Of a stretch of DNA of 64,000 bases, positions 1 to 58,301 are shown one piece after another. The stretch is taken from assembly GCA_951406725.2 (NCBI GenBank), contig OX597827.1:27528001-27592000 (forward strand). Direction: 5' to 3'. Source of the DNA: Octopus vulgaris (lineage: Eukaryota). Numbering within the stretch: the stretch's first letter is position 1; every line of letters starts with the position of its first letter. The notes beneath the pieces were generated by a model that was given only the letters and a program-made list of their open reading frames with translations, made no database searches and was not told where the DNA came from. The position numbers and the translations under genes are program-made.

Positions 1-1358
1 ATCTAACAAAGACCTTTGACTCGGTAAGTAGAAACGGCCTCTTCATCCTGCTCCAAAAAATCGGATGTCCACCAAAGCTGCTGAGGATCATCAAGTCTTT
101 CCATGACAATATGCAAGGCACCATACAGTACAATGGTTCAACATCAGCCTTCCAAATAAAAAAACGGGGTAAAACAAGGTTGTGTCCTCGCTCCTACATT
201 ATTTGGCATTTTCTTCTCGCTCTTGCTCTCACATGCCTTTCAGACATCAGATGATGGAGTGTTTCTGCACTGTAGAAGTGACAGGAAACTGTTCAATCTC
301 TCGCGCCTGCGTGCCAAGACCAAAATCAGAAACGTCCTGATTAAGGAGATGCTATTTACTGATGATGCCGCTCTGGTATCACACACAGAAGAAGCCCTCC
401 AAAGACTCATTAACTGTTTTGAGCAAGCATGTGACGACTTTGGCTTAGCTAACAGCCTTAAGAAGACCAACATCATGGGTCAGGCTACATCGGACATCCC
501 AAACATACATATTGGAGACCACAGATTACAGGAGGTGGAGAAGTTTACCTATCTTGGCTCTATCGTCACCTATAACCTATCCCTTGACGCCGAGCTCAAT
601 ATACGCATTGGCAAGGCAGCTGCTGTGATGGCCCAACTCTCCAAACGGGCATGAGACAACAATAAGCTGACCAAGACCACGAAAATGAAGATCTACCAGG
701 CATGTGCACTTAGCACTCTACTGTATGGAAGTGAGACTTGGACGCTATACACACGCCAAGAGCGTCGCCTAAACATCTTTCACCTGCGCTGCCTCCGGAA
801 AATCCTCCGCATCAAATGGCAGAATCATATCCCCAACAAAGATGTCCTCAAGCAAGCAGGAATACCAAGCATGTTTGCACTCCTCACACAAAGACGTATG
901 AGATGGCTCGGGCATGTTAGCCGTATGAAAGATGGCAGAATCCCCAAGGACATACTCTACGGAGAGCTTGCTAGGGGTACTAGGTCTGTGGGTAGACCGT
1001 TCTTACGTTACAAGGATGTTTGCAAAAGGGACATGAAGGCCTGCAACATCAATATTAGCGGTTGGGAAGCAATTGCCAGCAACCGTGGAGATTGGCGACG
1101 TACCGCAAAAGAGGGAATACAAAGAAGTGACAGAGAGAGAGAGGAGAAATGGAAAGACAAGAAAAGACGTCAACAAGAAACTATGACACTACAACCAGCC
1201 AGGAACAGTCTTCGCTACATTTGCGGTACCTGCGAGAGGGAGTGTTTGTCCAGGATAGGACTACAGCAGGAAATGTATCAGGACATGAAATGTAAAAGGC
1301 CGGACTGGACTATTTTTTGCGCAACTCCATTGTCTCCCGAGACAAAAAGGATGCCAAT

Positions 1359-27954: not shown

Positions 27955-27994
<40 letters not shown>

Positions 27995-28020
27995 CACATA
28001 CACAGATATATATGTATATG

Positions 28021-28237
28021 CTCTTTTACTCTTTTACTTGATTCAGTCATTTGACTGCGGCCATGCTGGAGCACCGCCTTTAATCGAGCAAATCGACCCA
28101 GGGACTTATTCTTTTGTAATTTCAGTACTTATTCTATCGGTCTCTTTTGCCGAACCGCTAAGTAATGGGGATATAAACACACCAGCATCGGTTGTCAAGC
28201 AATGCTAGGGGGACAAACACAGACACACAAACACACA

Positions 28238-28274
<37 letters not shown>

Positions 28275-28436
28275 GACGGGCTTCTTTCAGTTTCCGTCTG
28301 CCAAATCCACTCACAAGGCTTTGGTCGGCCCGAGGCTATAGTAGAAGACACTAGCCCAAGGTGCCACGCAGTGGGACTGAACCCGGAACCATGTAGTTCG
28401 TAAGCAAGCTACTTACCACACAGCCACTCCTGCGCC
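28021..28436 (-). mobile_element. Family A SINE, full length
   Basis: Reverse complement of the 33217 and 37117 copies. Confidence 0.9.
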
Positions 28437-28450
28437 ATATATATATATAT

Positions 28451-30908
28451 AGTTAAGTTAAGTTAAGTTAAGTTCAGGCCATTTCTAGTCAAGAGAGACT
28501 TTGAACCGAGCGGTTGTCGACATCTTCACTATCTCGTCCGGCAGCTTATCCACGGATCCACAACCCGGACGGAAATAGCCCCTCTCCTTCGATTGAGATG
28601 AAATCGTCGCAGATAGAGCTTTTCGAAGTGACCCCGCAGCCGACGCTCTGGAGCAGGAGTGAAGAACAGCTCTTTCGAGAGGTTACACTTTCCGCTTATG
28701 ATGTTGTGAACAAGAATGAGATCACCACGGCGTCGTCGTTTTTCTTGAGAATAAAGGTCGAGCGTCTTCAGCCTTTCTTCATAAGACAAATGCTTGAGAC
28801 CAAGAACCAGGCGGGTAGCCAGCTTCTGGACTCGTTCGAGATGATGTATGTCTTTGAGGAGATAAGAAGAGGCTTGAATCCCGTACTCCAATATGGGTCT
28901 CACCAGCGTGACATAGAGCGGTAGGAATATGGCTGCTGTGAGCATTCCGAATGACCGTCGAATCAAAAACAGAACTCCGCGTGCTTTCTAGGCAGCATGG
29001 ACGCACTGGGCCGAAGGCGAAAAAAAAGAATCCACCAAGATACCCAGGTCCTTTACCTGGTCGGTCCTCTCCAGCAGCAGACGACCCGGCTCGAATTCAA
29101 GTTGAGTTGCAGGAGAAGAGCCAACAGGCAGATGACAGCACTTTGACACGTTCAGACACAGGTCCCATTCGTTAGACCATCTCCAAACTTGGTGGAGGCA
29201 TCGACGAAGATCATCTATATCACCGCGAGGAGCGACCAGTTTGACATCATCGGCAAATAGAAGGGTGTGTTGCATGAGTTCGTCGGGCAAGTCATTTATG
29301 AAGACTAAAAACAATAAGGGCCCAAACACTGAACCTTGAGGCACGCCACTGCTCGCACTGGAGACGTCGAACAGCGAACCATTAACTTGGACTTGGAAGG
29401 AGCGATCTGAGAGGAAGGCACAAACCCATCGTACAATATCCGGATGGGAAATATATGCTTGAAGCTTGACAAGTAATAGGCGGTGGTTAACCGAGTCAAA
29501 AGCTTTGGCAAAGTCCAATAAAACGATGTCTACAGCATCACCATCATCCAGGATACGCGTCACCAATTCTTCCATTACCAGTAAGTTAGTCAAGCGTGAT
29601 CTCTTCGGCATGAAGCCGTGTTGGAAATCAGAGATAGAGACTGTATTTTGGAGGTGGAGCAACATACTTTTCTTAAGGATGGTTTCGAATATCTTGCTGA
29701 TTATTGAAGTAAGGGAAACCGGTCGGTAGTTAAGCGGGTCTTCGCGGCTCCCTTTCTTGAAAATTGAGCAGATTATTGCTGTTCTCCAGTCTGCAGGTAT
29801 AACACCCTCCGCTAATGACATATTGAATAGCAGTATTAAAGGTTCGCAGATGACCGGAGTCAACGCTTTGATAACCTGTGGGTGTATGCCGTCAGGGCCG
29901 TGACCCTTGTTGACATCGAGGTCTTGAATAACGCGTTCGACTTCGTCCCGAGTGATGACCAATCTAGGCGTTGGAGTTACCGATCTATCAAATGGAGGGG
30001 GTTCACGACCATCATCTTGTTTGAAAATAGTTGAAAAAGCCTCGGCAAATAACTGACTCTGCTGATAAGGGTCCTCAATCGATACGCCTGTTGAGTCTTC
30101 CAACGTTGCAATTTGGTTGTTCAAGCGGGAATTCCGTTAGACATGGGCAAAGAAGGTTTTTAGATTGCAACTGGCGTTTGCCGCGATTCTGTATTCATAT
30201 CTGAAGCGTTTTTCCTTTTCAATTTTCACGGCTCGGTCTCGTTGAGTGTTGTACACCTCAAAAGCTGCAGTCGAATCTAGATTGAATTCAGCCCAAGCAA
30301 TATCTCTGAGTCGAAGTTCTCGTTTTACCTTCTTCGTCACCCAGAGCTTGTGTTTCTTCTTCTTGGGAAACCCAACGGGAACTGCTTGGTCAGTCAACCA
30401 GATTACATATGCTTTGAGGGACGACCATAGTTCGTCAACTGAGGACATCGTCATCAGGGATCGTCAGTCCAGAAGCACGGAAGCCTCGGTTAGAATTTCA
30501 GGTTTGATTGCAGAGAAGACTCTACACGGCAGCGAAGTAATCGTGGGCGTAGAAGAAGTTGTGTGCATGTCGAACTTCAGGACCGCGTGATCACTCTTGG
30601 CAAGAGGGGTGCACAGAGATAAGCCTGACACTGATCTTGGATAGCGGGAGAATACCAGATCCAGCATAGAAGGCTGCTGCCCAGACCGATGCCTTGTCGG
30701 ATATTCAACATGTTGCGATAGAAAACAATCTTCAGCCACGTCAAGAAGGGCTTGGCCGAACCGGGAAGATGATGTACAAATTGATGCGGGCCAGTCGATC
30801 GTGGGAGCGTTGAAGTCTCCTAATATCAAACAGTCATGAGAAGCTGAAACGAATCTTATCGCTTCGAGTAAATGAGCATCGTCCTGGGTTCGGCAAGAAG
30901 CGGCCTGT
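28451..30908 (-). mobile_element. CR1-type LINE ORF2 (APE endonuclease end plus RT), 5' truncated, with (AACTT)n tail
   Basis: CLILGDFNAPTIDW, LDLVF, SDHAVL (EN); NYRPVSLTS, QHGF, LDFAKAFDSVNH, GVPQGSVFGPLLF, LFADDVKL (RT); RRRRGDLI. Four ORF pieces share one frame and are separated by in-frame stops at 30464, 30137 and 28988. Confidence 0.93.
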
Positions 30909-30947
30909 AGACAGTCAAATGACTGAAACAAGTAAAAGAGTAAAAGA

Positions 30948-30992
<45 letters not shown>

Positions 30993-31124
30993 CACTCATT
31001 TTTCATATATGTGTATACGTGTATACGTGTACAAATATACATACACACACATATCTACACACATTTTTCACATATACATATATGTACAAATATACATACA
31101 AATACACACACATATATAGATATT

Positions 31125-31281
31125 AGGCGCAGGAGTAGCTGTGTAGTCAGTAGCTTGCTTACGAACTACATGGTTCCGGGTTCAGTCCCACTGCGTGGCA
31201 CCTTGGGCGAGTGTTTTCTACTATAGCCTCGACCAAAGCCTTGTGTGTAGATTTGGTAGACGGAAACTGAAAGAAGCCCTT

Positions 31282-31345
<64 letters not shown>

Positions 31346-31587
31346 CATACATACATACATACATACATCTATGAAATATAATGTGTGTATGTTTGTGTGT
31401 CTGTGGTTGTCCCCCACCGTCGTTTGACAACCGATGTGGTCTGTTTACGTCCCGTAATTTAGCGGTTCGGCAAAAGAGACCAATATACTAAGTACTAGGC
31501 TTACAAAGAATAAGTACTGGGGTCGATTTGTTCGAGTAAAGGCGGTGTTCTACCATGACCGCAGTCAAATAACTGAAAGAAATAAAA

Positions 31588-31590
<3 letters not shown>
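31125..31590 (+). mobile_element. Family A SINE, full length
   Basis: Head, core, internal microsatellite and tail all present. Confidence 0.88.
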
Positions 31591-31633
<43 letters not shown>

Positions 31634-31945: not shown

Positions 31946-33130
31946 CTAATAAAGGGGCATATAAGCCATTGACAGAAAAAAAAAAACGAAAGCTTTCCTA
32001 ACCACGTGGGAGCCGAACCCACATCCATTTGTTAACTCCAGTTGCTTTTTAGCAACTGCCATTTGGTGTATGAGAGAGTTCGATGCAGCTGCCCTCATCT
32101 GCACCTCCTGCCGTGAAGTTGGTTCATCTGGGACACCTGGCAGGTAGAGATCCAGTCCCACTTTAAAGACATCTGCATCCATCAGGTTCTTCGGGAGGAT
32201 ATTGAAGAGCTGTGGGCCTCTGAAGCCCAGGCTATCACAGTATCTTGTCCTAGATCTTGATGGCAAATTTGGAGTCCTTGGCACCACACAGTGGCGCCCA
32301 GTTCTGGCATTTATGTAACTCTCGATGCCAAAGTTTGGGACAAGTCCTTCTAGGATCTTCCAGATGTATATTATGGCATATCTTTCTCGCCTACGCTCTA
32401 AGGAATAGAGTCTTAATCTCTTGAGCCTTTCCCAGTAGCTTATATGCTGTACAGAGGCTATCTTCTTCGTGTAGCTGCGTTGGATCGCCTCAAGTTCTGT
32501 GATCAACTTGACACTGGATGGTGACCATAGCTGAGAGCAATAGTCAAAGTGGCTTAGGATAAGTGTCCTCCAGAGGACCATCATTGTTTCTTGGTCTCTT
32601 GTCCTAAAGGTTCTAAGAATCCATCCGACCAGCCGCTTACATTTCATTGCCAATTTAGCAACATGTACATGAAAGGTTGCGTCATCACTCATGTAAATAC
32701 CCAGGTCACGCACTGATTGTGCCTCTGGGATTGCAATCCCTCCAGGTCCAGTGTATTCATTGGGTATTGCATTTAGTTTTGCATGCTGATAGCATAAAGC
32801 TTGAAACTTTTCAGCATTGAACTGCATGCTATTCTTTTCAGCCCACTTGTATATTTTGTCCAGCTCACATTGCAGGTGCTTAGTGTCTTCAGGGTTCTGT
32901 ATTGCCTGTGAAACTTTTGTATCATCTGCATAACTTGTGATCGTGGCTCTCTGCGTAGCTGAGAGCATGTCTGAGAGGGCCATTATGAACAGTAGTGGTC
33001 CCAAAACAGTGCCCTGCAGAACACCGCTCACTATTTGCGTGTTGATGGAAGTGGCCCCTTTGGCTACTACCACCTGACTTCTATCCTTCAGAAAGTCATG
33101 AAGCCATTCTCCCAATTTTCCAACTATGCC

Positions 33131-33133
<3 letters not shown>
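31946..33133 (-). mobile_element. Second CR1-group LINE, 3' RT fragment
   Basis: WLHDFLKDRSQ, SGVLQGTVLGPLLF, SYADDTK, VRDLGI, FDYCSQLWSP, LRLYSLERRRER; open frame, 5' truncated at (TA)n. Confidence 0.9.
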
Positions 33134-33171
<38 letters not shown>

Positions 33172-33216
33172 ACTCATATATATATATATATATATATATA
33201 CATCTCATATATATAT

Positions 33217-33382
33217 AGGCGCAGGAGTGGCTGTGTGGTAAGTAGCTTGCTTACCAACCACATGGTTCCGGGTTCAGTCCCACTGCGTGGCACCTTGGGC
33301 AAGTGTCTTCTGCTATAGTCTCGGGCCGACCAATGCCTTGTGAGTGGATTTGGTAGACAGAAACTGAAAGAAGCCTGTCGTA

Positions 33383-33421
<39 letters not shown>

Positions 33422-33648
33422 ATGTATGTGTTTGTGTGTCTGTGTTTGTCTCCCTAGCATTGCTTGACAACCGATGCTGGTGTGTTTATGTCCCCGTCAA
33501 CTAGCGGTTCGGCAAAAGAGACCGATAAATTAAGTACTGGGCTTACAAAAAATAAGTCCCGGGATCGATTTGTTCGACTAAAGATGGTGCTCCAGCATGA
33601 CCACAGTCAAATGACTGAAACAAGTAAAAGAGAAAAGAGAAAAAGAGA
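33217..33648 (+). mobile_element. Family A SINE, full length
   Basis: ggcgcaggagtggctgtgtggtaag...ccttgggcaagtg...gactgaaacaagtaaaagag. Confidence 0.9.
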
Positions 33649-33711
33649 ATATATATATATATATATACATATACATGCATATATATATGCATATATATAT
33701 GCATATATATA

Positions 33712-33762
<51 letters not shown>

Positions 33763-36451: not shown

Positions 36452-37109
36452 ATAAGATCGTTAATATAAATATTGATGTAATCAAATGGACAGCATGGGA
36501 ATAAAAACCTTCAAAGGTAATAATTATTATTAAAATGGTTTAAAACATTTAATGTGGTTTTAGAGTCAGGTTTTTGGCTGCTATTTCCAGCGTGGAGGTA
36601 TCTCTTAGTTACCCTAAATTATAGTTTTAATAATAATTATTACCTTGGAAGGTTTTTATTCCCATGCTGGACACCTGATAAGATCGATATTTAAATTAAA
36701 GATCTTATTGTTATTTATAAAAATTTTTATATTTATTTCGTCATTGTATTTACTGCGGTGGTGTTTTAACCATATCGCACGAGGAGTTATTAGGCGGGCA
36801 ATTTAAACTGGTCGTGTGCATACGTGCATATATATGTATGTATACGTTCGCATATGTAAGTATTCGTATGTTATATGTGTATATATATGTGTATTTATGT
36901 TACTATATTCCACTGATGAAGCAAAGCATTACTAATGCAAAATCAGAAATCCGGGATCTGGAATTACCCAATAATTTTTTGTTAGTCTATTTTCTCCTTC
37001 CGTCTTCTCTCCTGGTGTTGTATGAACATTTAATGTAGCTTTAAAGTCAAGTTTTGGCTGCTATTTCCAGCGTGTTGGTATCTCTTACATACTCTAAATT
37101 ATAATTTTA
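36452..37109 (+). mobile_element. Non-coding HHR-bearing element with terminal direct repeat (481-bp period) and inverted 5' segment; retrozyme-like or non-autonomous PLE
   Basis: Direct repeats 36544-36629 and 37025-37109; inverted repeats 36452-36535 and 36625-36708; HHR at 36907-36964; (TA)n on both flanks. Confidence 0.7.
36907..36964 (+). ncRNA. Type I hammerhead ribozyme (base of stem II degenerate)
   Basis: AUUCCA-CUGAUGA-...GCAUUAcUAAUGC...-GAAA-UCCgGGA-UC/UGGAAU: 6-bp stem I, intact core, AUC triplet. Confidence 0.68.
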
Positions 37110-37116
37110 TATATAT

Positions 37117-37537
37117 AAGCGCAGGAGTGGCTGTGTGGTAAGTAGCTTGCTAACCAACCACATGGTTCCGGGTTCAGTCCCACTGCGTGGCACCTTGGGC
37201 AAGTGTCTTCTACTATAGCCCCGAGCCGACCAATGCCTTGTGAGTGGATTTGGCAGACGGAAACTGAAAGAAGACTGTCGTATATATGTATATATATATA
37301 TGTGTGTATGTGTGTGTGTTTGTGTATGTGTGTTTGTCCCCCTAGCATTGCTTGACAACCGATGCTGGTGTGTTTACGTCCCCGTCACTTAGCGGTTCGG
37401 CAAAAGAAACCGATAGAATAAGTACTGGGCTTACAAAGAATAAGTCCCGGGGTCGATTTGCTCGACTAAAAGTGGTGCTCCAGCATGGCCGCAGTCAAAT
37501 GACTGAAACAAGTAAAAGAGTAAAAGAGAGTAAGAAT
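37117..37537 (+). mobile_element. Family A SINE, full length
   Basis: Near-identical to the 33217 copy. Confidence 0.9.
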
Positions 37538-37568
37538 ATATATGTATACATATGTATATATATATATG

Positions 37569-37603
<35 letters not shown>

Positions 37604-37790
37604 GTATAGATATATATATATATATATATATATAAATGTATAGATGTATATATGCAATCGTAAATATGTGCATGGATATATTTTTGTGAAATTAAAGACA
37701 AAGATGCTTTCATGATATATGATTTTTTTAAATACATATTTTGTTTGCACAGACGCACGCCCACACATACACACACACTCACTCACGCAC

Positions 37791-38589: not shown

Positions 38590-38655
<66 letters not shown>

Positions 38656-38860
38656 CTACAAAATTAGAGAATGGAGAAACATACTTAAATCAATAGAACA
38701 TCAACTATCCGATGATACTCAATCCATACTTTAATACACCATTACATAGGAGTAAAGGCAATATATAAAATGAAATGAGATATACAGTAATAGTAAAAGT
38801 AAAAGTAAAAGTAAAAAGATAAAGAGATATAAGTAAAAAATTACAAATACAATATGCAAA

Positions 38861-38990
38861 TAAATCAAAACTGACAGCTGTTTCGGCAGTGGGGACAGTC
38901 ATACCTCATTTAACCTATAAGCCATAAAGGCAGGTATAAATGAGGCATTAACAAAGATGCCCCACGGCCTCTTCAGAGAATTAAATTAAA
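38861..38990 (-). ncRNA. Type I hammerhead ribozyme, left-arm copy
   Basis: Reverse complement of 44881-45010. Confidence 0.82.
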
Positions 38991-39321
38991 TTTGTTATAA
39001 TAGTGAAAAATATTATATAATCATATACATATAAATATAAAAATATAAAAAAGTAAAATATAAAAACTTATACATCATAATGCTACACTTGTATAATATA
39101 ATACATATTTGTACAAAAAGGAAGGTAACCAGAACAAAATAAAACAAAATATATAACAGTGTATATATAATATTAATAAGTACCGATATCATACATATTT
39201 AGCTAATAGTTTTTTTTAATAAAAAAAGGGGCTAACACATATGGAGATGAAAAATAATAATAATTAAATCCGTGGTACAGTTCACAAAATTCTAAAGCTA
39301 TAAAAGTTAATAAAAATTACT

Positions 39322-39355
<34 letters not shown>

Positions 39356-41085
39356 GTAATAATAATAAAAAAAATAATAAAAATAGATACAGTTAAGTTA
39401 TCACCAAGTCCATCCTTCCAAGATCGAAATAACTATGAGTTAAGAAATGCTGACCACTAGGTAAAGAAAATTTAGATTAATTCGATTGGCTATTGGTTTG
39501 AAATTTAAATCACAAAAGAAAATTATACGGTTGGTTAGTCAGGGAACGCCAATATTCACACACGCATCTACAGATCAATCGCACATACACACATAGTTAT
39601 ATGTATATACATACACTTGTACATATACATAATCATAAGCAACAACTAACACTTAGATAAACAAATAGGGAAGCAACCATGCTAACACTAAGTCCTTCAA
39701 AATTATAACTGAGCCTCAATAACAAAAAAAGAACCATCCATGCATTCTATAAAATATTTAATTAAGATATAAATGTATTTTTAAATATCAGTATGTTACT
39801 AATTCAGATAATTATTTCATGGGTAACTTAAAATTTGTAACACCGGTTTGTTGCAGAGTAAACATACGGTTGTTATGTTTATCGTAAGTTTGTTATGATT
39901 TAAAGTACGCTAAATTATAAAATATAAAATATAAAATATATTAATTTAGATATTATAAATAAGTCACTTATTAACTTAACAAATATAGTGCCAAAATATA
40001 CCAGTTTAGGCAATAAAAAATAGAGGGGGAAGTATTAATGTAAACGCTTATGAGAACATCACAGAAATTTTAAATAAATTTTATACTATAAAGACTTAAT
40101 ATGAAAAGAGATAAAATAAATAAAAAGGAATAAATACGAAGGAATAAATACGGTTATACACATAATTATAAGTACAAACTAGTATATATGTATTCATATA
40201 TTATTAAAATAAATAAAAAGAAATGATAGATATGTATGTATAAAACTACACCAGTATAAGTAAATAAGTAAAGAATAAATAGGTAACAAATTAAATGACT
40301 TGATATGTATGTAAACATCCACACTTAAATAGGCAAATAAATAAATAAATAGAAGACTAGATGCAAATATTGATAATATTACAATAAAATGGGAAATAAA
40401 TAAAAATAAATAAAGTGAATATATATATTTTATATTGTTGAAAGTAAATATGTATGGAAGGATAGTTTAAAGTACAGATCCAGAGGACTATAGATATAAA
40501 CTAAATATATGAGGCTGGTAACAATTATAAAGCAAAATGCATGTAAATGAGAAAATGAAAAAAATGAAAAAGGTTTATCAGTGAATAACATAAGATACAA
40601 ATTAAGGTGAGTACAAAAAGACCAAATATATAATAAAAACCTTCCAAATCAGCACATACAAAAAACCCATAATCTCAACCTAAACCCACCAAACTCACAA
40701 AAGGCTCTCATATATTACATATTATACAATATCATTACATTATCCAGAGCTAGGTATCTAACCAAGATATACATATATACTTTGCAATATACTATGCAAT
40801 ATTGGAAAACTTCAAAAATCACACATTACAAGGCAAATACCAAAATGAATATGTTATTTTATGTCATATTGCATTTCTCTTAAAAAAAACAAACAAAAAC
40901 CCACATACAAAAACCAAGAAACCAATAATACTAGACACATCCAATTAGTTATTATACAAATGTAGCTATAAAAATTATAAAATTATGAAATTTATAAAAT
41001 GTATACTTTAGAATTATAGAAGACCACAGGTATATTTAGTTAAAGAAGGGAATTAAAAAATTGATAATAGTGGAAGTGCTAAGTT

Positions 41086-42060
41086 CTATTTGAATCTAGA
41101 AAAGGTGAACGGTAGTCTATGAATACAAAAGAAGCTTTTCTCATTAATGTTATTAATAATTTGCCGACCCGCTTTAATAATGAAGAAAATTTCATTAATA
41201 CATAGAGAGCATTTTTTATTTTTTCCATTATACACAGGTGCTGAAGTTAGTATTTTCCAGTTTAATCTAAAATCTAAGTTCTTACTTTTAAGTTCCCAAA
41301 TATATGCACTTAGCCCTGTAGAGTACATTCTATTTTTATTCCTAAAAGTATATCTATGATAATTCCATCTTTGTTTTATGCTATTCATAGTTGCCCCGAT
41401 ATACACTCTACTACTCAATTGTGTATCTACAGTGCATTGGTAAACTACCTCCTTCCTGAGGCATTGATTACCAAATACACATTTATTTTTATTTCTGCAA
41501 TTACAAAGATTAACAGAATGAGGAAATCTAAGATTGGACACCACCCCTGTACTACTATTCACATTATAAGTGTTACAATTGTTATCATCATCCAAACCCA
41601 AAATCAACGAATGAGTTAATTCCACATTATCGGCTATATTCCTATCACTAGTACTAGTATTGGTAGTAGTGGTATGATCTATTACATTTATATTATCTCT
41701 GACAGGTATGGTGCACTCATTATTAGTAAGGAGGTTGCTCCCATTTGTTCCAAGAAAATTTCTATTCCTATTATTAATGAAGAGGGGCAAGTTTTCCTGG
41801 TCTAAATTCAATTTTCTATCCTTATAGAAGTGATCCAGTTTCTTGTTATTAAAAGAGGAGATGATGGTGGCTAGATTATGAGTAATGCTATATCCCACTC
41901 TAACAGTACCGTTGTTAATTAAAGGACTAAATTTATTCCTATCCTTACCAAAATGCCTAAAAATAATATTATGCAAAGCTCTCACTATGTTTGTTTTAAT
42001 CTGCATTGCATACGGGATAATCAACCAAAGAGTATCCTTATCAGAATTAGGATTGCCTAT
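41086..42060 (-). pseudogene. PLE ORF C-terminal part: thumb end, linker and GIY-YIG endonuclease (5' truncated, no RT core)
   Basis: LWLIIPY..TNI..LINNGTVRVGYS; CNCRNKNKCVFGNQC; VVYQCTV...VYIGATMNSIKQRWNYH; LSAYIWELK; CSLCINE; CIH. This layout resembles Nematis-type PLEs (from recall, unverified). Confidence 0.85.
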
Positions 42061-42061
42061 A

Positions 42062-42785
42062 GAATTTAGACCAGGAAAACTTGCCCCTCTTCATTAATAA
42101 TAGGAATAGAAATTTTCTTGGAACAAATGGGAGCAACCTCCTTACTAATAATGAGTGCACCATACCTGTCAGAGATAATATAAATGTAATAGATCATACC
42201 ACTACTACCAATACTAGTACTAGTGATAGGAATATAGCCGATAATGTGGAATTAACTCATTCGTTGATTTTGGGTTTGGATGATGATAACAATTGTAACA
42301 CTTATAATGTGAATAGTAGTACAGGGGTGGTGTCCAATCTTAGATTTCCTCATTCTGTTAATCTTTGTAATTGCAGAAATAAAAATAAATGTGTATTTGG
42401 TAATCAATGCCTCAGGAAGGAGGTAGTTTACCAATGCACTGTAGATACACAATTGAGTAGTAGAGTGTATATCGGGGCAACTATGAATAGCATAAAACAA
42501 AGATGGAATTATCATAGATATACTTTTAGGAATAAAAATAGAATGTACTCTACAGGGCTAAGTGCATATATTTGGGAACTTAAAAGTAAGAACTTAGATT
42601 TTAGATTAAACTGGAAAATACTAACTTCAGCACCTGTGTATAATGGAAAAAATAAAAAATGCTCTCTATGTATTAATGAAATTTTCTTCATTATTAAAGC
42701 GGGTCGGCAAATTATTAATAACATTAATGAGAAAAGCTTCTTTTGTATTCATAGACTACCGTTCACCTTTTCTAGATTCAAATAG
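42062..42785 (+). pseudogene. Mirror copy of the PLE linker and GIY-YIG endonuclease
   Basis: Translation identical to the C-terminal 233 aa of the minus-strand ORF. Confidence 0.85.
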
Positions 42786-44880
42786 AACTTAGCACTTCCA
42801 CTATTATCAATTTTTAATTCCCTTCTTTAACTAAATATACCTGTGGTCTTCTATAATTCTAAAGTATACATTTTATAAATTTCATAATTTTATAATTTTT
42901 ATAGCTACATTTGTATAATAACTAATTGGATGTGTCTAGTATTATTGGTTTCTTGGTTTTTGTATGTGGGTTTTTGTTTGTTTTTTTTAAGAGAAATGCA
43001 ATATGACATAAAATAACATATTCATTTTGGTATTTGCCTTGTAATGTGTGATTTTTGAAGTTTTCCAATATTGCATAGTATATTGCAAAGTATATATGTA
43101 TATCTTGGTTAGATACCTAGCTCTGGATAATGTAATGATATTGTATAATATGTAATATATGAGAGCCTTTTGTGAGTTTGGTGGGTTTAGGTTGAGATTA
43201 TGGGTTTTTTGTATGTGCTGATTTGGAAGGTTTTTATTATATATTTGGTCTTTTTGTACTCACCTTAATTTGTATCTTATGTTATTCACTGATAAACCTT
43301 TTTCATTTTTTTCATTTTCTCATTTACATGCATTTTGCTTTATAATTGTTACCAGCCTCATATATTTAGTTTATATCTATAGTCCTCTGGATCTGTACTT
43401 TAAACTATCCTTCCATACATATTTACTTTCAACAATATAAAATATATATATTCACTTTATTTATTTTTATTTATTTCCCATTTTATTGTAATATTATCAA
43501 TATTTGCATCTAGTCTTCTATTTATTTATTTATTTGCCTATTTAAGTGTGGATGTTTACATACATATCAAGTCATTTAATTTGTTACCTATTTATTCTTT
43601 ACTTATTTACTTATACTGGTGTAGTTTTATACATACATATCTATCATTTCTTTTTATTTATTTTAATAATATATGAATACATATATACTAGTTTGTACTT
43701 ATAATTATGTGTATAACCGTATTTATTCCTTCGTATTTATTCCTTTTTATTTATTTTATCTCTTTTCATATTAAGTCTTTATAGTATAAAATTTATTTAA
43801 AATTTCTGTGATGTTCTCATAAGCGTTTACATTAATACTTCCCCCTCTATTTTTTATTGCCTAAACTGGTATATTTTGGCACTATATTTGTTAAGTTAAT
43901 AAGTGACTTATTTATAATATCTAAATTAATATATTTTATATTTTATATTTTATAATTTAGCGTACTTTAAATCATAACAAACTTACGATAAACATAACAA
44001 CCGTATGTTTACTCTGCAACAAACCGGTGTTACAAATTTTAAGTTACCCATGAAATAATTATCTGAATTAGTAACATACTGATATTTAAAAATACATTTA
44101 TATCTTAATTAAATATTTTATAGAATGCATGGATGGTTCTTTTTTTGTTATTGAGGCTCAGTTATAATTTTGAAGGACTTAGTGTTAGCATGGTTGCTTC
44201 CCTATTTGTTTATCTAAGTGTTAGTTGTTGCTTATGATTATGTATATGTACAAGTGTATGTATATACATATAACTATGTGTGTATGTGCGATTGATCTGT
44301 AGATGCGTGTGTGAATATTGGCGTTCCCTGACTAACCAACCGTATAATTTTCTTTTGTGATTTAAATTTCAAACCAATAGCCAATCGAATTAATCTAAAT
44401 TTTCTTTACCTAGTGGTCAGCATTTCTTAACTCATAGTTATTTCGATCTTGGAAGGATGGACTTGGTGATAACTTAACTGTATCTATTTTTATTATTTTT
44501 TTTTATTATTATTACTATTATTATTATTATTATTATTATTATTATCAATAGTAATTTTTATTAACTTTTATAGCTTTAGAATTTTGTGAACTGTACCACG
44601 GATTTAATTATTATTATTTTTCATCTCCATATGTGTTAGCCCCTTTTTTTATTAAAAAAAACTATTAGCTAAATATGTATGATATCGGTACTTATTAATA
44701 TTATATATACACTGTTATATATTTTGTTTTATTTTGTTCTGGTTACCTTCCTTTTTGTACAAATATGTATTATATTATACAAGTGTAGCATTATGATGTA
44801 TAAGTTTTTATATTTTACTTTTTTATATTTTTATATTTATATGTATATGATTATATAATATTTTTCACTATTATAACAAA

Positions 44881-45010
44881 TTTAATTTAATTCTCTGAAG
44901 AGGCCGTGGGGCATCTTTGTTAATGCCTCATTTATACCTGCCTTTATGGCTTATAGGTTAAATGAGGTATGACTGTCCCCACTGCCGAAACAGCTGTCAG
45001 TTTTGATTTA
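44881..45010 (+). ncRNA. Type I hammerhead ribozyme with an 85-nt extended stem II
   Basis: CUGAAGA 44895-44901; stem II GGCcGUGGGG/CCCCACuGCC enclosing AUGCCUCAUUUA/UAAAUGAGGUAU; GAAA 44987-44990; palindromic stem III ACAGCUGU; GUC cleavage after 44998; stem I is 2 bp plus an AU-rich extension. Confidence 0.82.
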
Positions 45011-45383
45011 TTTGCATATTGTATTTGTAATTTTTTACTTATATCTCTTTATCTTTTTACTTTTACTTTTACTTTTACTATTACTGTATATCTCATTTCA
45101 TTTTATATATTGCCTTTACTCCTATGTAATGGTGTATTAAAGTATGGATTGAGTATCATCGGATAGTTGATGTTCTATTGATTTAAGTATGTTTCTCCAT
45201 TCTCTAATTTTGTAGTATTAATTTACGGTAATATTATTACCCTTACCCATTTAATACAATAGATGAACTGATTGCTTGACAATTTCTAACATCTATGTAT
45301 TAATTTTTGTTGGGTACCTATCTAGCAGTATATTGGATATATATTATCCCATGGTGGGTTGAATTTTCAACCCCTATCTCATT

Positions 45384-45414
<31 letters not shown>

Positions 45415-46368: not shown

Positions 46369-46627
46369 ATAATATATATTTTTGCATATTTACATACATG
46401 TATGTACATAGCTACATATATATGTATATATTCATGGATATATGGGGTATAGGACGTAAAAATTAACGTAAACAAAGTGAGAAACGAGAACAGGAAAATA
46501 TAAACATGGGAAACGAACATTTTTTTCGAACAACGAAAGAAACAAATAGAGAAACGAGGCAGGCAACAAAAAGAACAATCCCGTCATCAGTTGTCCCCTG
46601 TTTTATCTAGTCCGCATATATATATAA

Positions 46628-47025
46628 AGGCGCAGGAGTGGCTGTGTGGTAAGTAGCTTGTTTACCAACCACACGGTTCCGGGTTCAGTCCCACTGCGTG
46701 GCACCTTGGGCAAGTGTCTTCTACTATAGCCTCGGGCCGACAATAGCCTTGTGAGAGGATTTGGTAGACGGAAACTGAAAGAAGTCCGTCGTATATATGT
46801 ATATATATGCGTGTGTGTGTTTGTGTGTCTGTGTTTGTCCCTCTAGCATTGCTTGACAACCGATGCTGGTGTGTTTATGTCCCCGTTACTTAGCGGTTCG
46901 GCAAAAGAGACCGATAGAATAAGTACTGGGCTTACAAAAAGGATAAGTCCCGGGGTCGAGTTGCTCGATTAAAGGTGGTGCTTCAGCATGGCCGCAGTCA
47001 TATGACTGAAACAAGTAAAAAAAAA
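46628..47025 (+). mobile_element. Family A SINE, full length
   Basis: Near-identical to the 33217 and 37117 copies. Confidence 0.9.
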
Positions 47026-47048
47026 TATACATACATATATATAGATAC

Positions 47049-47086
<38 letters not shown>

Positions 47087-47092
<6 letters not shown>

Positions 47093-48466: not shown

Positions 48467-50374
48467 TCATCAAACCGGCGGACAAAGGCGGAGCCGTGGT
48501 GGTGTGGCGCGCGGATCTCTACAGGGAGGAAGCGCTCAGCCAGCTTCAAAATCCCCTCTTCTATCGCCTCCTCCCCTCTGATCCCACCTCTTCCTACCAA
48601 CAGCGAGTGTCCTCCACTATCCGCGAACTCATCTCCTCTTCTGCTCTCCCCCCACCGCCACCAACCTCATCGTCCGCACTCCCCGCACCTCCACCATCTA
48701 TTTCCTTCCCAAAATTCATAAGCCCAATAACCCTGGCCGCCCCATCATTTCCGCCTGTAATTGCCCAACTGAACACATTTCCCTATACCTCGACCGCATC
48801 CTGTCCCCCTTAGTCAAAGCCCTCCCTTCCCACATACACGATACCAACCACAACTCCTCCGTCTCTTCAATTCCTTTTCCTTACCTTCCAGCCCCTCACA
48901 CCTCCTCTTCACCCTTGACATCAAATCCCTGTATACGGTACTTCCCCACAACGACGGTCTCCTAGCTCTCCAACACTTCCTCGACCGTCGTCCCGACCCC
49001 ACCCCTAGCACCCCCACCCTCCTCCGCCTGGCAGAGCTCGTCCTAACCCTCAACTATTTCACTTCGCCGGGGAAACGTACCAACAGGTGTCTGGGGTCGT
49101 GATGGGAACGAGAATGGGCCCCAATTTCGCCAATCTCTTTGTTGGCTACATTGAGGCCCAAGTATTCTCCCAATTCTCCGGGCCGACCCCAGAACTATAC
49201 GGTCGTTACATAGCCGACTGTATAGGCTCCACCTCCCTTTCCCGCGAACAACTCTGCCACTTCATCTCTTTCCTCTCTAACTTCCACCCCTCTCTACAAT
49301 TCACTTCCACCATATCCAATACTTCCGTTAACTTCCTTGATATCTCACTCAGCATCGACCCCCCACTCTCTCACCACCTCCGCCTTCTTCAAACCCACGG
49401 ATTCCCACCTCTATCTCAACTTCTCCTCCTCCCATCCCTTCCACACAAAACGGGCCATCCACTACTCCCAGTTCCTCCGCCTCCGACGCTTGTACAGCCG
49501 CGACCAGGATTTCGAGACCCAGTCTCAATACCTGGCCCGCCTGTTCAGGCTTCGAGGATACCCACCTACCCTGGTCTTGAACGCCCTCGCCCGCGCTCGT
49601 CGCATCGACCGCACCACCGCCCTTTCTCCTTCCAATCACCCCCCACGCACCCCCTTTCCTCTCCTTTTCCACCCCTCTACTCTACCCCTTCGTCGGAAGA
49701 TACTTCGTGCCTTCCGTCGTCTCCAGCTCGATTCCACGACCCACCCCATATTCCCCAACCCACCCCTGTCCTCCTTCAAACGAGCCCGGAATCTACGCGA
49801 CCTCCTGGTCCGTAGCACCCTCCCTTCTTTCCTCTCGGCCCCACTCGGATCCTTCCCGTGCTCCAGATCCCGCTGCAACACCTGCCCCTTCATCACCAAC
49901 ACCACTGCTGTCACCGGTTCCAACCGGCGAACTGTACGTATCAGGCATTCTTTTACGTGCACCTCGTCTGGACTCATATACTGCATTAAATGCAACCTCT
50001 GCGGAATGCTGTATATAGGACAGACGGGACGCCGGTTGTCAGACCGATTCGCCGAACATCTGAGGGATGTTCGTCTACTGTCCAATTCTCCCGTCGCACG
50101 TCACTTCCGCTCGGCCAGCCATTCCCCCGATGACATCTCGGTGTTTGGTCTTGCCCCACACAACGGCTCTCCACAATCTAGGCTTCACTTGGAGCAACGG
50201 CTCATATTCCTTCTACAGACTCTAACCCCACACGGACTCAACACAGCCCCCTCCTCTTAGTGACTGCGCTCCACTTCTTCCCACTAGCATCTTTTATTTT
50301 TTATTTATTATTTATTAATTATTATTTATTTTTTTATTTTATATTTTTTAATTTTTAAAATTGTCCTTATGCAG

Positions 50375-52990
50375 TCACACACACACACATACTCACGTAC
50401 CCACGAACACACCTACTCCCAACACACCTCACACACACAACGTACATGCACATGTACGAACACATACTTCCACACCTATACACATACCCACACACCCACA
50501 CACCCCCACGTGCACACACACACACATGCCCGTGCACACACACCAGGGACAAAACTGATACAGATACGCACATCCTATAAACACCTAGCTGAGACGCACA
50601 GATACACGCACGTAAGCGCACACACGCACACAAGCACGCGCATGTACCTCACGCCCACACAACTCCAAACCCCCCACACGCATACATTAACACACACACA
50701 TATATACGTACACACACATAATACATACATAGATACATTCATACATACATACATACACACACACGCATACATACATACATACATACATACATACATACAC
50801 ACACATACACACACATACATACATACACACATACATACACACACATACACATATGCACACATACATACATTCACACACACACACATACATACACACATAC
50901 ATACATACATACACACACATACATATACATACACACATACACACACACATACCCACACACATACACACACATACATATACACACATACGTACACACACGC
51001 ACATACACACATCCACGCATGCACACATGCATACATATATACACATACATACACACACACATGCATACGCACATACATACACACACACACTTACATACAT
51101 ACATACATACACACACATACATACACACACACATACACACATACATACACACACATACACACATACATACATACACACATACTTACATACACACACATAC
51201 ATATACATACATACAAACACAAACATACACACATACACACATACATACATACATACACACACACATACATACACACATACATACAGAGACACATATATAC
51301 ACACACATACATATACATACATACAGACACACACATGCACACATACACGCATGCACACATACATACATACACATACATACACACACGCACATACATACTA
51401 TACACACATACACATGCACACATACATGCATACACACACGCGTACATATACATACATACATACACATACACATACACACACACTTACACACATACACCCG
51501 TACATACATACATACACACACACTTACATACACACACATACATACATACTTACACACATACACACATACACACATACATACATACACACACGCATACATA
51601 TGCATACACAAACACATACACACATACATGTATACACACATACATACACACATACATACATAGATACATACATACACAAACATACATATACATACATACA
51701 CACACACATATACACACACACATACACACATACGCACGCACGCACACATACATACATACACACACATACATACACACACACGTACATACATACATACATA
51801 CATACACACACACTTACACATATACACACATACATACACACACATACATACATACATACATACATTCATACACACACATACACACATACACACACATACA
51901 TACATACATACGCACATACATACACAAACATATACACACATACACGCACACATACACACACATATATATACATACATACACACACACATACACACATACA
52001 CGCATGCACACATAATACATACATACACACATACATACACTACATACATAGATACATACATACATACGCACACACATACATATACATACATACGTACACA
52101 CATGCACATACACACATACACGCATGCATAAATACATACATACACACATACTTACATACATACATACACACACACTTACACACATACACACACACATACA
52201 TACATACGTACGTACATACATACACACACACATACATACACACACACATACATACATACATACACACATACCCACACATACACACATACTTACATACACA
52301 TACGCATACATACACACATACACACACACATACACACATATATACATACATTCACTCGCACGCACGTACACACACACGCACACACACACGCACACACACA
52401 CGCACACACACAACACATTTACATATATATACTATACACGCACACACACATATACACGTACAAACACACACAAACTCACATACACACCGACAGATATACA
52501 TACACAATATACACCTATCCGCGCACGCACACATACACATAAACACATACAAACGCACTCATACACGCACACACATACACGTACATACATACACATTCAC
52601 ACAAATGAACCCACACATACATCCCTACACACACACACGCACGTACAAGCACATACGCACACATACACTAGGTTAAGCAGTTACTCGCCACACACCCACA
52701 CTCTACGCATACACACACGAACACACACATGCACACACACACACTACAAACAACACACACACATGATACATATACTTACACGCACACACATATACCCCTT
52801 TTTTTTTGACCTGGCTTTGACCTGGTTGGATACAAACAAGCTAGCTGTCATAAAGGAGTGCCTTATGACAGCTAACTTGCCATTGCTTATTATTCACCAT
52901 ACATACACACACACACACACACACGCACGCACGCACGCACAAACACACTTGTCATCCTTGCACACACACACGCTTCCACACACATTCCTT
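50375..52990. repeat. ~2.6-kb degenerate (CA)/(CATA) low-complexity tract
   Basis: Mixed CACA/CATA/CACG units; source of the spurious His/Thr ORFs. Confidence 0.93.
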
Positions 52991-54761: not shown

Positions 54762-56416
<1,655 letters not shown>

Positions 56417-56795
56417 GACACAACCAATTATTTCCATAAAGCTTTTCCTTTCACTGTTATCTATTTTAGAAAGTTGAATTGCGTTGAGCGGGTAGGTATT
56501 AAAATTTCTACAAATGATCATTATTTTATGGCTGTTATGGTTGGTGATATGCAATTGATAATTCCATTATAGAATACGTGTTCTGTGGCCTTCAGTGTTC
56601 CATTTGTGTAATTAATCTCTGTCTTTATGATTAGTAAAACATCCTCAGTGTCAAAGGCAAAGGTAATCCGGCAGTAAATACAGCAGAGCATTGTGTCTGT
56701 CGCTCTAACGTTTTCTGCAAGCTTACTGCCTTCATAATAATAATAATAATAACAACAACAACAACAACAACAATAATAATAATAATAATAATAAT

Positions 56796-56856
<61 letters not shown>

Positions 56857-56860
<4 letters not shown>

Positions 56861-58301
56861 TAATGAAGGAAAAAATAAGGAAGGAATACTATAGGAGAAT
56901 AAGGCTTGTACTGAAGACTGAACTCAACTCCAAAAATTGCATTGAGGCCATTAACACTCTGGCACTTCCAGTAGTCCAGTACAGTTTTAACATCATTAAC
57001 TGGAACCTTACGGAACTCCAACGCTTGGACAGGAAGACAAGAAAGTTACTGACATCCAAGAGCATGCACCACCCTAAGGCAGATGTAGACCGCTTGTACC
57101 TACCTAGAAGCAGCGTGGGGAGAGGAATGATGCAATTAGAGCTGTGCTATAAGACTTCTACTGTAGGAATGAACAGGTACCTATCTAGTACAAAGGACTG
57201 GATGCTGCGACTTGTGTGCGAACACGAAAGCAGCAAAAAGCTACATTCTATTGTCAAGGAAGCTTATAAGTTCGAAAGGGAACTAGACATTAACCTTGAA
57301 TCAGATGAAGAGCCGGAAACCACTGCTACCAAGCAAGCAAAGCGAATCAAACAGACTGCAAAAAAGAACGAGCAGAATCAAATTGAGAGGCGGTGGAGCC
57401 AGAAACCCCTGCATGGACAATATATTCTCCGAAGCCAAAATGCTGATGTAGACCAAGCAACAACCCATCAGTGGCTGAAGAGCTCTGGATTGAAAGCAGA
57501 GACTGAAGGTTTCATAATGGCAGCACAAGATCAAAGCTTGTTTACCAGAAATTACCAGGCTAACGTTCTCCGAAACGGTACTGACCCTAAATGCAGATTC
57601 TGCGACACATTTGACGAAACGATAGACCATCTCGTTTCGGGATGTCTTGTGCTGACACCAAACGAATACAAAAATCGCCACGATAGGGTAGGACAGTATA
57701 TACATTGGAAGATATGTAAACACTACAAATCCGACACTCCTGCTAACTGGTATGAACACCATCCTCAGCCAGTTGTTGAAGGTAAAGATGTCACCATCCT
57801 CTGGGATTTTCCAGTCAACACTGACAGAACGATCAAGGCTAATCGACCAGACATAATTGTTAAAGACAGGGAAGAAAATACCTGCAGACTAATAGAAGTA
57901 AGCGTCCCCACTGATAAAAATGTATCTGTCAAGGAATTTGACAAACTTAGTAAATATAAGGACCTGGAAATCGAAATACAGAGGATGTGGAATCTTAAAA
58001 CAAAAACTGTTCCTGTTATTGTAGGTGCCCTAGGTATGATAAAAAAGGGATGTCAGAAACACCTAGACAATATCCCTGGAAAACCATGTCTCAAGGAAAT
58101 CCAAAAGATTGTGCTAACAAGTACTGCCCACATCCTTAGAAAAACCCTATCAATGTAAATGTTTGTGTTTGCATTACATGGAGATATATCTCCCCAAGCT
58201 TTCAGCTATATTTCAACAACTCTTAACCTTCACTTGCCCTAGGGCGCTGGGTGTGCCCCGGCAGGTGATTGTATCAAACATGCAGATTAAAAGTAAATGA
58301 C
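56857..58301 (+). mobile_element. R4/Dong-type non-LTR retrotransposon, 5' truncated, inserted in (TAA)n; ORF 56863-58158 open
   Basis: AINTLALPVVQYSF; LDRKTRK; HHPKADVDRLYLPR; GLKAETEGFIMAAQDQ; CCHC knuckle CRFC..ETIDHLVSGC; RHD; RLE motif RPDIIV..IEVSVP..KLSKYKDL; (TAA)n on both flanks. Confidence 0.92.

Follow-up and report, generated by a model that had tools for sequence, protein, structure and literature searches.

A 64,000-nucleotide stretch of the Octopus vulgaris genome (contig OX597827.1, positions 27,528,001 to 27,592,000; hereafter the window) contains a large palindrome, made up of two head-to-head copies of a Penelope-like element (PLE) that, judged by its motifs, belongs to the Hydra clade. 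We consider it somewhat more probable than not that this 5'-truncated pair came from one insertion, with both nicked strands of a (TA)n target priming reverse transcription. If that is true, this one young insertion preserves the two start sites and the two stop sites of a target-primed reverse transcription event that ran from both strands.

Gapped self-alignment of the assembly sequence placed the inverted arms, of about 3.16 kb each, at 38651-41809 and 42062-45220, with a 252-bp spacer (41810-42061) between them. The right copy alone carried a further 170 bp (45221-45390), and (TA)n adjoined both outer ends of the palindrome. The arms were 99.9% identical, with 3 differing columns out of about 3160, a similarity far above chance (BLAST E = 0.0). 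The differences were a sole substitution (39325 A versus 44546 C) and two 1-bp indels in A-runs, the left arm being shorter by one base near 39366/44504 and longer by one base at 41055/42816. The two indels offset each other in net length, although the register is shifted across about 1.7 kb. All three differences lay 3' of the stop codon, and the coding parts of the arms were identical. The mirror symmetry ended at the element boundary, with the two flanks being unrelated to each other, and self-alignment revealed no further copy of the element within the window. We do not take the substitution, which is A/G when read on the antisense strand, as a sign that an antisense template was edited, a single transition being no evidence.

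The features of the palindrome and its immediate borders are as follows (coordinates, strand, description):

38592-38650, no strand: left (TA)n target microsatellite; its boundary with the element is ambiguous by about 2 bp
38651-42066, minus: left 5'-truncated copy, reaching further 5' and without the tail; its last 5 bases apparently overlap the right copy
38873-38976, minus: hammerhead-like core of the left copy, the mirror of 44895-44998
41086-42066, minus: open C-terminal part of the open reading frame (ORF) of the left copy, with reverse transcriptase (RT) thumb, Asn-rich expansion of about 100 amino acids, CxCX5C linker, GIY-YIG endonuclease, CxxC..E, N..CxH and stop
41810-42061, minus: spacer of 252 bp, RT-thumb coding sequence present in the left copy only
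42062-42066, no strand: probable junction microhomology of 5 nt; an ATA codon for the Ile of the family would extend it to 7 nt (42068)
42062-45390, plus: right 5'-truncated copy, with the tail
42063-42785, plus: ORF remnant of the right copy (240 amino acids; linker and GIY-YIG), identical to the left
42786-45220, plus: T-rich 3' non-coding region common to the arms (2.4 kb), containing all three arm differences
44895-44998, plus: predicted type I hammerhead of the right copy, with CUGAAGA core, extended stem II of 85 nt, GAAA, palindromic stem III and a predicted cut after 44998
45221-45390, plus: one-sided tail of 170 bp with several hairpins (z = -4.4; 0 of 100 shuffles as good)
45391-45414, no strand: right (TA)n, extended by a compound TA/CA microsatellite that reaches about 45571

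Words were sampled from 41000-45390, and 20 of the 24 listed sequencing runs, from 7 studies, contained half of them or more; no RNA data set was listed for this stretch, which says nothing about expression. The sequence of the element family is therefore real, although word presence is uninformative on the junction. That there is a palindrome at this locus is probably also real, and its insertion is probably young. However, its age cannot be read from the arms, because there are only three differences, two of them in homopolymers.

An earlier note, made from the letters of this DNA, had proposed the coordinates of arms, spacer and tail and the (TA)n ends, all of which were reproduced by the gapped alignment. 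Its account of the arms as having one mismatch and no net indel was right as to the 39325/44546 pair and the zero net length, but it had missed the two A-run indels. We also agree with its identification of a Penelope-like element, which is upheld by homologues, motifs and a hammerhead fold (below), and with its description of the spacer as more of the upstream ORF of the left copy, since the spacer is in frame with that ORF.

Protein and clade of the element

On the minus strand, the left copy had 324 open codons, from 42060 to a stop at 41086-41088. The RT thumb and the GIY-YIG endonuclease shared this one open frame, the endonuclease being C-terminal, after the thumb. A search of 1.84 billion representatives with the window protein (P0001) yielded 4391 homologues at E <= 0.001, with 150 among the matches listed. 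The RT core, which is truncated away in the window, was present in the long homologues of P0001; a search aimed at longer homologues of P0001 found none. Pfam gave no match for P0001 and no RT or GIY-YIG match in any of 10 scanned homologues, one of which had two sub-threshold unrelated matches.

One homologue, P0154 (source label Octopus sinensis), was identical to the window at 25/25 residues at the start of the spacer and carried the RT core; judged by this sequence match, it very probably represents the same family. Public databases list P0154, a Hydra-type RT fragment, under the name "GATA zinc finger domain-containing protein 14-like", probably due to its Asn-rich segment. The distance from thumb to linker was 174 residues in P0001 versus 71-83 residues in 62 of the 71 measurable proteins, and the insert between thumb and endonuclease comprised 113 amino acids (19% Asn). 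P0154 had a second insert, of 136 residues (24% Asn), between RT core and thumb.

By these motifs and homologues, the arms are copies of an endonuclease-containing (EN+) PLE. As described in PMC8557442, Hydra-clade diagnostics include a CxCX5C linker, no CCHH in the endonuclease, CxxC and CxH around a conserved E and N, and a (TA)n target; further traits are N-terminal RWK and DKT motifs and no insertion in the fingers domain (IFD). Wherever these diagnostics could be read, they placed the element in this clade. The linker motif was found in P0001 as C186-C188-C194 and in 113 of 161 homologues examined. P0001 had no cysteine pair between GIY and YIG, nor did any of the 125 examined proteins with a recognisable GIY-YIG. 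CxxC and CxH flanked the conserved E and N in P0001, and C.LC..E was present in 130 of 154 homologues examined. The N-terminal region lies outside both the window and P0154; among long homologues, DKT was present in 8/8 and RW[KRQP] in 7/8, with a strict RWK in 2/8. The short size of Hydra elements (<3 kb), a descriptive rather than diagnostic trait, did not extend to this one, the truncated unit being about 3.6 kb without the RT core. There was no direct repeat, i.e., pseudo-long terminal repeat (pLTR), inside the unit, although with both copies 5'-truncated an upstream pLTR would be invisible; Hydra-1_Obim is annotated "no pLTR" (PMC8557442 supplement).

Our first guess, the Neptune clade, was ruled out on motifs. 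More generally, the motifs defining the Neptune, Nematis and Penelope-Poseidon clades were lacking in P0001, and the C-terminal position of the endonuclease excluded Naiad and Chlamys, in which it is N-terminal.

The predicted hammerhead, the 3' region and the tail

A hammerhead descriptor (core, stems I-III and cut site) matched twice in the whole window, once per arm. The region folded at z = -4.2 (0 of 200 shuffles as good), and at z = -4.4 in the comparison with the tail; its palindromic stem III matched those tabulated for Hydra families. PLE hammerheads are described as having a palindromic helix III and as being active as dimers (PMC4209133). None of 17 Rfam matches at E <= 5 was a hammerhead, and the microRNA matches were microsatellite noise below gathering scores; the 85-nt stem II is probably why Rfam missed the motif. 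Counting CTGANGA by itself was uninformative (30 found versus 21 expected).

The tail ended directly on (TA)n, and the right arm showed no copied (TA)n at 45220. Its origin is pivotal, because a tail of host DNA would let a simple fold-back explain everything. At z = -4.4 the tail contrasted with seven control segments taken from the flanks and the 3' region, all of which were unstructured (z = -1.4 to +2.0). This predicted fold argues that the tail is element sequence, which we regard as highly likely. A short perfect hairpin at 45352-45379, just inside the outer end of the tail, is a candidate RT start signal. We rejected a start of a next ORF in the tail, where a four-residue likeness to Hydra N-termini was accompanied by no in-frame ATG.

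How the inverted pair may have arisen

In the model that we favour slightly, the GIY-YIG endonuclease would nick both (TA)n strands. The top-strand end would prime a complementary DNA (cDNA) at an inner start, equivalent to 45220, with synthesis stopping at the equivalent of 42066. The bottom-strand end would prime a second cDNA at an outer start (45390), 170 nt further 3', and this would stop about 250 nt earlier. The 3' ends of the two cDNAs would then pair via about five complementary bases (42062-42066), and mutual extension would generate the palindrome, leaving the spacer unpaired and the tail on one side only. We favour priming from both strands because one copy is longer at its 5' end and the other at its 3' end, and because both outer ends lie on (TA)n. 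Copying of the left cDNA together with target DNA is disfavoured, because the right arm does not continue into (TA)n at 45220. Although we infer every step, the model, to which we give a little better than even chances, would yield arms, spacer and tail without an extra step. There is a precedent in vitro: with the anole PLE PAc, both target strands were cut and extended, and reverse transcription started at two internal sites, the genomic tail corresponding to the intervening sequence (PMC11167929).

The junction was compared with P0154, as the earlier note had suggested doing with a family consensus, and this pointed to about 5 nt of microhomology. Upstream of the first residue of the spacer P0154 reads Ile-Asn-Ser, whereas the minus strand of the window reads Leu-Asn-Ser across the junction, and the two sequences match at 27 of 28 residues across it. 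This implies that bases 42062-42066 could belong to either copy, as the next bases of the left one or the first bases of the right one. Of the 3403 joins that are possible, just 7 would give Asn-Ser at these positions, a chance of about 0.2%. ATA accounts for 8 of the 29 Ile codons in this ORF. We sought a second witness among short proteins over the junction region of P0154 and found none. When the spacer region was folded in silico as DNA, the junction bases stayed unpaired.

Several points weigh against priming from both strands. PAc belongs to the Poseidon clade, and a joined palindromic product does not appear in the available parts of PMC11167929. The near-identity of the arms is what would be expected from DNA-templated copying. 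The junction is read from the assembly sequence, its microhomology is read from one protein at the amino-acid level, and fold-back predicts that microhomology equally well. As for the tail, its AT skew (-0.17) is uninformative, the flanks being T-rich too, and no second tail-bearing copy was found, either in the window or in a metagenome scan. Microsatellites are dense (182 Tandem Repeats Finder rows in 64 kb), such that host DNA lying 170 bp from (TA)n would be unremarkable, and the PLE tails described in PMC8557442 measure 30-40 bp, not 170.

The alternative that deserves most attention, although we judge it fairly unlikely, is that a tail-bearing antisense strand folded back and primed itself at the 5-nt complement, looping out 252 nt, with the tail being trimmed from one end at resolution. 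Fold-back predicts the same microhomology and spacer, and near-identical arms would be expected from it. Self-priming on an antisense template has been proposed for head-to-head Penelope junctions (PMC3846280), and resolution by the endonuclease has been proposed as an origin of the tail (PMC8557442). The metagenome scan (150 candidate stretches) yielded two distant related loci, neither of the window family. One of these (contig L001) contains a decayed head-to-head Hydra-type pair, at 304-572 and 830-1127, with arms 75% identical and a 257-bp spacer derived from the ORF of the right copy. The similarity of this spacer to the 252 bp of the window would suit a preferred loop size, although n = 2. 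However, fold-back requires an extra, unobserved trimming step, the junction bases are unpaired in the predicted fold of the spacer, there is no junction palindrome of the Adineta vaga type, and later in vitro work attributes tails to two RT start sites (PMC11167929). It is improbable, in our estimate, that the 170 bp are instead host DNA, with both copies ending at the 3' end of the family and one target-primed cDNA having simply folded back. The lack of a second tail-bearing copy, the density of microsatellites and a length far above that of published tails would agree with this, but the fold of the tail sets it apart from the flanks and from most of the 3' region, its outer end abuts (TA)n, which is the Hydra target, and the right arm received no (TA)n at 45220.

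An assembly artefact, in which a fold-back or amplification chimera was misjoined via the near-identical arm to a second young copy elsewhere, seems quite improbable. Fold-back reads are a recognised sequencing artefact and homopolymer indels, which make up two of the three arm differences, are a typical long-read consensus error; the palindrome, like its junction, is also read from the assembly. However, in a fold-back read the flank would be mirrored too, and here the symmetry is lost at the end of the element, beyond which the flanks are unrelated; the layout also agrees with published PLE insertions, and L001 is an independent contig with a decayed pair of the same kind. Even less credible is a history of two separate events, in which either a second copy landed beside an existing one or DNA repair later duplicated part of a single copy in inverted orientation. 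Three arm differences would be compatible with two young source copies, and DNA-repair junctions commonly show microhomology. Against this, the junction lies in coding sequence rather than in (TA)n, the 3' ends face outward onto one interrupted microsatellite, and a repair duplication would have no reason to halt at the end of the element.

Two cDNAs from opposite strands, as the earlier note had proposed, thus remain the best single model, by a judgement only modestly above even, and one that agrees with the in vitro data for another PLE (PMC11167929). The note went too far in setting aside simple fold-back, since fold-back predicts the same microhomology and needs just asymmetric end processing or a host-DNA tail. 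Its "very recent single event" can be retained in that the insertion is probably young and likely to be one event; the three differences, however, may be assembly errors or may have been reduced by arm-to-arm conversion. The layout itself is standard PLE architecture (PMC8557442; PMC3846280). A single locus is insufficient to separate two-strand priming from fold-back, but this could be done over many insertions of a young family whose arms are long and unique, given a genome assembled from long reads.

Relation to known elements and surroundings of the locus

The priming model resembles L1 twin priming, in which two target strands prime two cDNAs that are joined by microhomology, producing a 5' inversion. 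In L1 the two cDNAs derive from largely non-overlapping RNA segments, whereas the two copies in the window both begin close to the 3' end and have 3.16 kb in common. We found no paper, in the literature searched, applying the twin-priming model to PLE inverted copies.

Published descriptions treat a neighbouring, inverted and 5'-truncated copy, along with a tail on one end only, as typical of PLEs (PMC8557442; PMC3846280), and Penelope-13_HM, of the Hydra clade, is annotated with a 966-nt inverted 5'-truncated copy (PMC8557442 supplement); their mechanism is presented as still open (PMC8557442). The window shares the head-to-head layout and the one-ended tail of PLE inverted pseudo-LTRs (PMC3846280; PMC8557442). 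The inverted junction of Pen2a_Av has an overlap of 15 bp (PMC3846280), and that in the window also appears short, at about 5 nt. In the published inverted examples available to us, arms are about 0.2-1 kb and tails 30-40 bp, compared with 3.16 kb and 170 bp here, together with a non-palindromic spacer of 252 bp. PAc of Anolis carolinensis resembles the window element, as modelled here, in its AT-rich target, in the use of both strands, in two RT start sites whose spacing defines the tail and in a hammerhead upstream of those sites. In PAc the start sites lie within the beginning of the next ORF, in an AC-rich stem-loop (PMC11167929), whereas the tail in the window has no convincing ORF start.

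The Hydra families described in PMC8557442, including Hydra-1_Obim of Octopus bimaculoides and Penelope-13_HM, resemble the window element in motifs, in the (TA)n target and in a sense-strand 3' hammerhead with palindromic stem III. They are tabulated there at 1.1-3.0 kb, versus about 3.6 kb for the truncated unit without RT core in the window. Hydra-1_Obim, at 2507 bp, has no long inserts, and its thumb sequence differs by eye, marking the window element as distinct. What sets the latter apart from these families are its Asn-rich expansions, a 3' region of 2.4-2.6 kb, the 85-nt stem II and the 170-bp tail. In-frame Asn-rich inserts are reported at the same two positions, core-thumb and thumb-endonuclease, in Pen2a, Pen3 and Pen4 of the rotifer Adineta vaga (PMC3846280). 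Those inserts are 460-554 amino acids long versus about 100-130 here, and they occur in another clade and phylum; in octopus both positions are apparently occupied in one family.

The architecture of the insertion was thus already known, and what is new is apparently a long Hydra-clade family with unusual features. The traits of the family that look new are the Asn-rich expansions flanking the thumb, the long 3' region (2.6 kb), stem II of 85 nt and a tail 4-5 times as long as usual. We did not find the family described in the literature searched, although most subscription journals and repeat databases lie outside that search. The family may be among the 31 Penelope-like families that a recent annotation of Octopus vulgaris gives as recently active, with no clades stated in the portion available (PMC13282606). 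We tentatively suggest, at less than even confidence, that there is an undescribed long Hydra-clade lineage in octopus, with two RT starts 170 nt apart around a structured RNA domain, multi-kilobase palindromes as a normal product, independent Asn-rich expansion at both rotifer positions, and a long-stem-II hammerhead missed by short-spacer descriptors. In an octopus host, such palindromes would be candidate sources of long double-stranded RNA for editing or small-RNA pathways. A precedent exists in Drosophila, where small interfering RNAs match inverted regions of rearranged Penelope copies (PMC3681739). Read-through transcription of the palindrome is unsupported either way.

The window was microsatellite-rich, with 36% GC, which together with the match to P0154 suggests an octopus host. 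Of 185 candidate frames outside the element 78 were screened, and no host exon was found among them; the five with matches all carried transposon domains. A second PLE, an RT remnant of another clade, lies at 49009-49812 (plus strand) and by eye resembles Neptune/Nematis alignment rows; it has Ala-Asp in place of the catalytic Asp-Asp and is followed, in a different frame, by GIY-YIG-like sequence. A dispersed repeat of about 480 bp occurs at 27975-28450 (minus) and at 31112-31629, 33207-33761, 37108-37652 and 46616-47092 (plus), with older fragments in addition. Identity between copies is 85-92% in the best segments. The repeat combines a tRNA-like head with (TA)n both inside it and on its flanks, and resembles a tRNA-derived short interspersed nuclear element. 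Fragments of long interspersed nuclear elements with RVT_1 lie at 160-651 (plus), 28991-31054 (minus) and 31949-33250 (minus), with an AP-type (apurinic/apyrimidinic) endonuclease domain at 30467-31054, and a remnant with zf-Tnp_2, a zinc finger associated with DDE transposases, lies at 54765-55019 (minus). The longest screened frame outside the element, with 506 open codons (56638-58155, plus), had no Pfam match at E <= 1e-4. Finally, a degenerate CA-rich tandem array of 2.4 kb (50376-52795) had an extreme GC skew, reaching -0.85.

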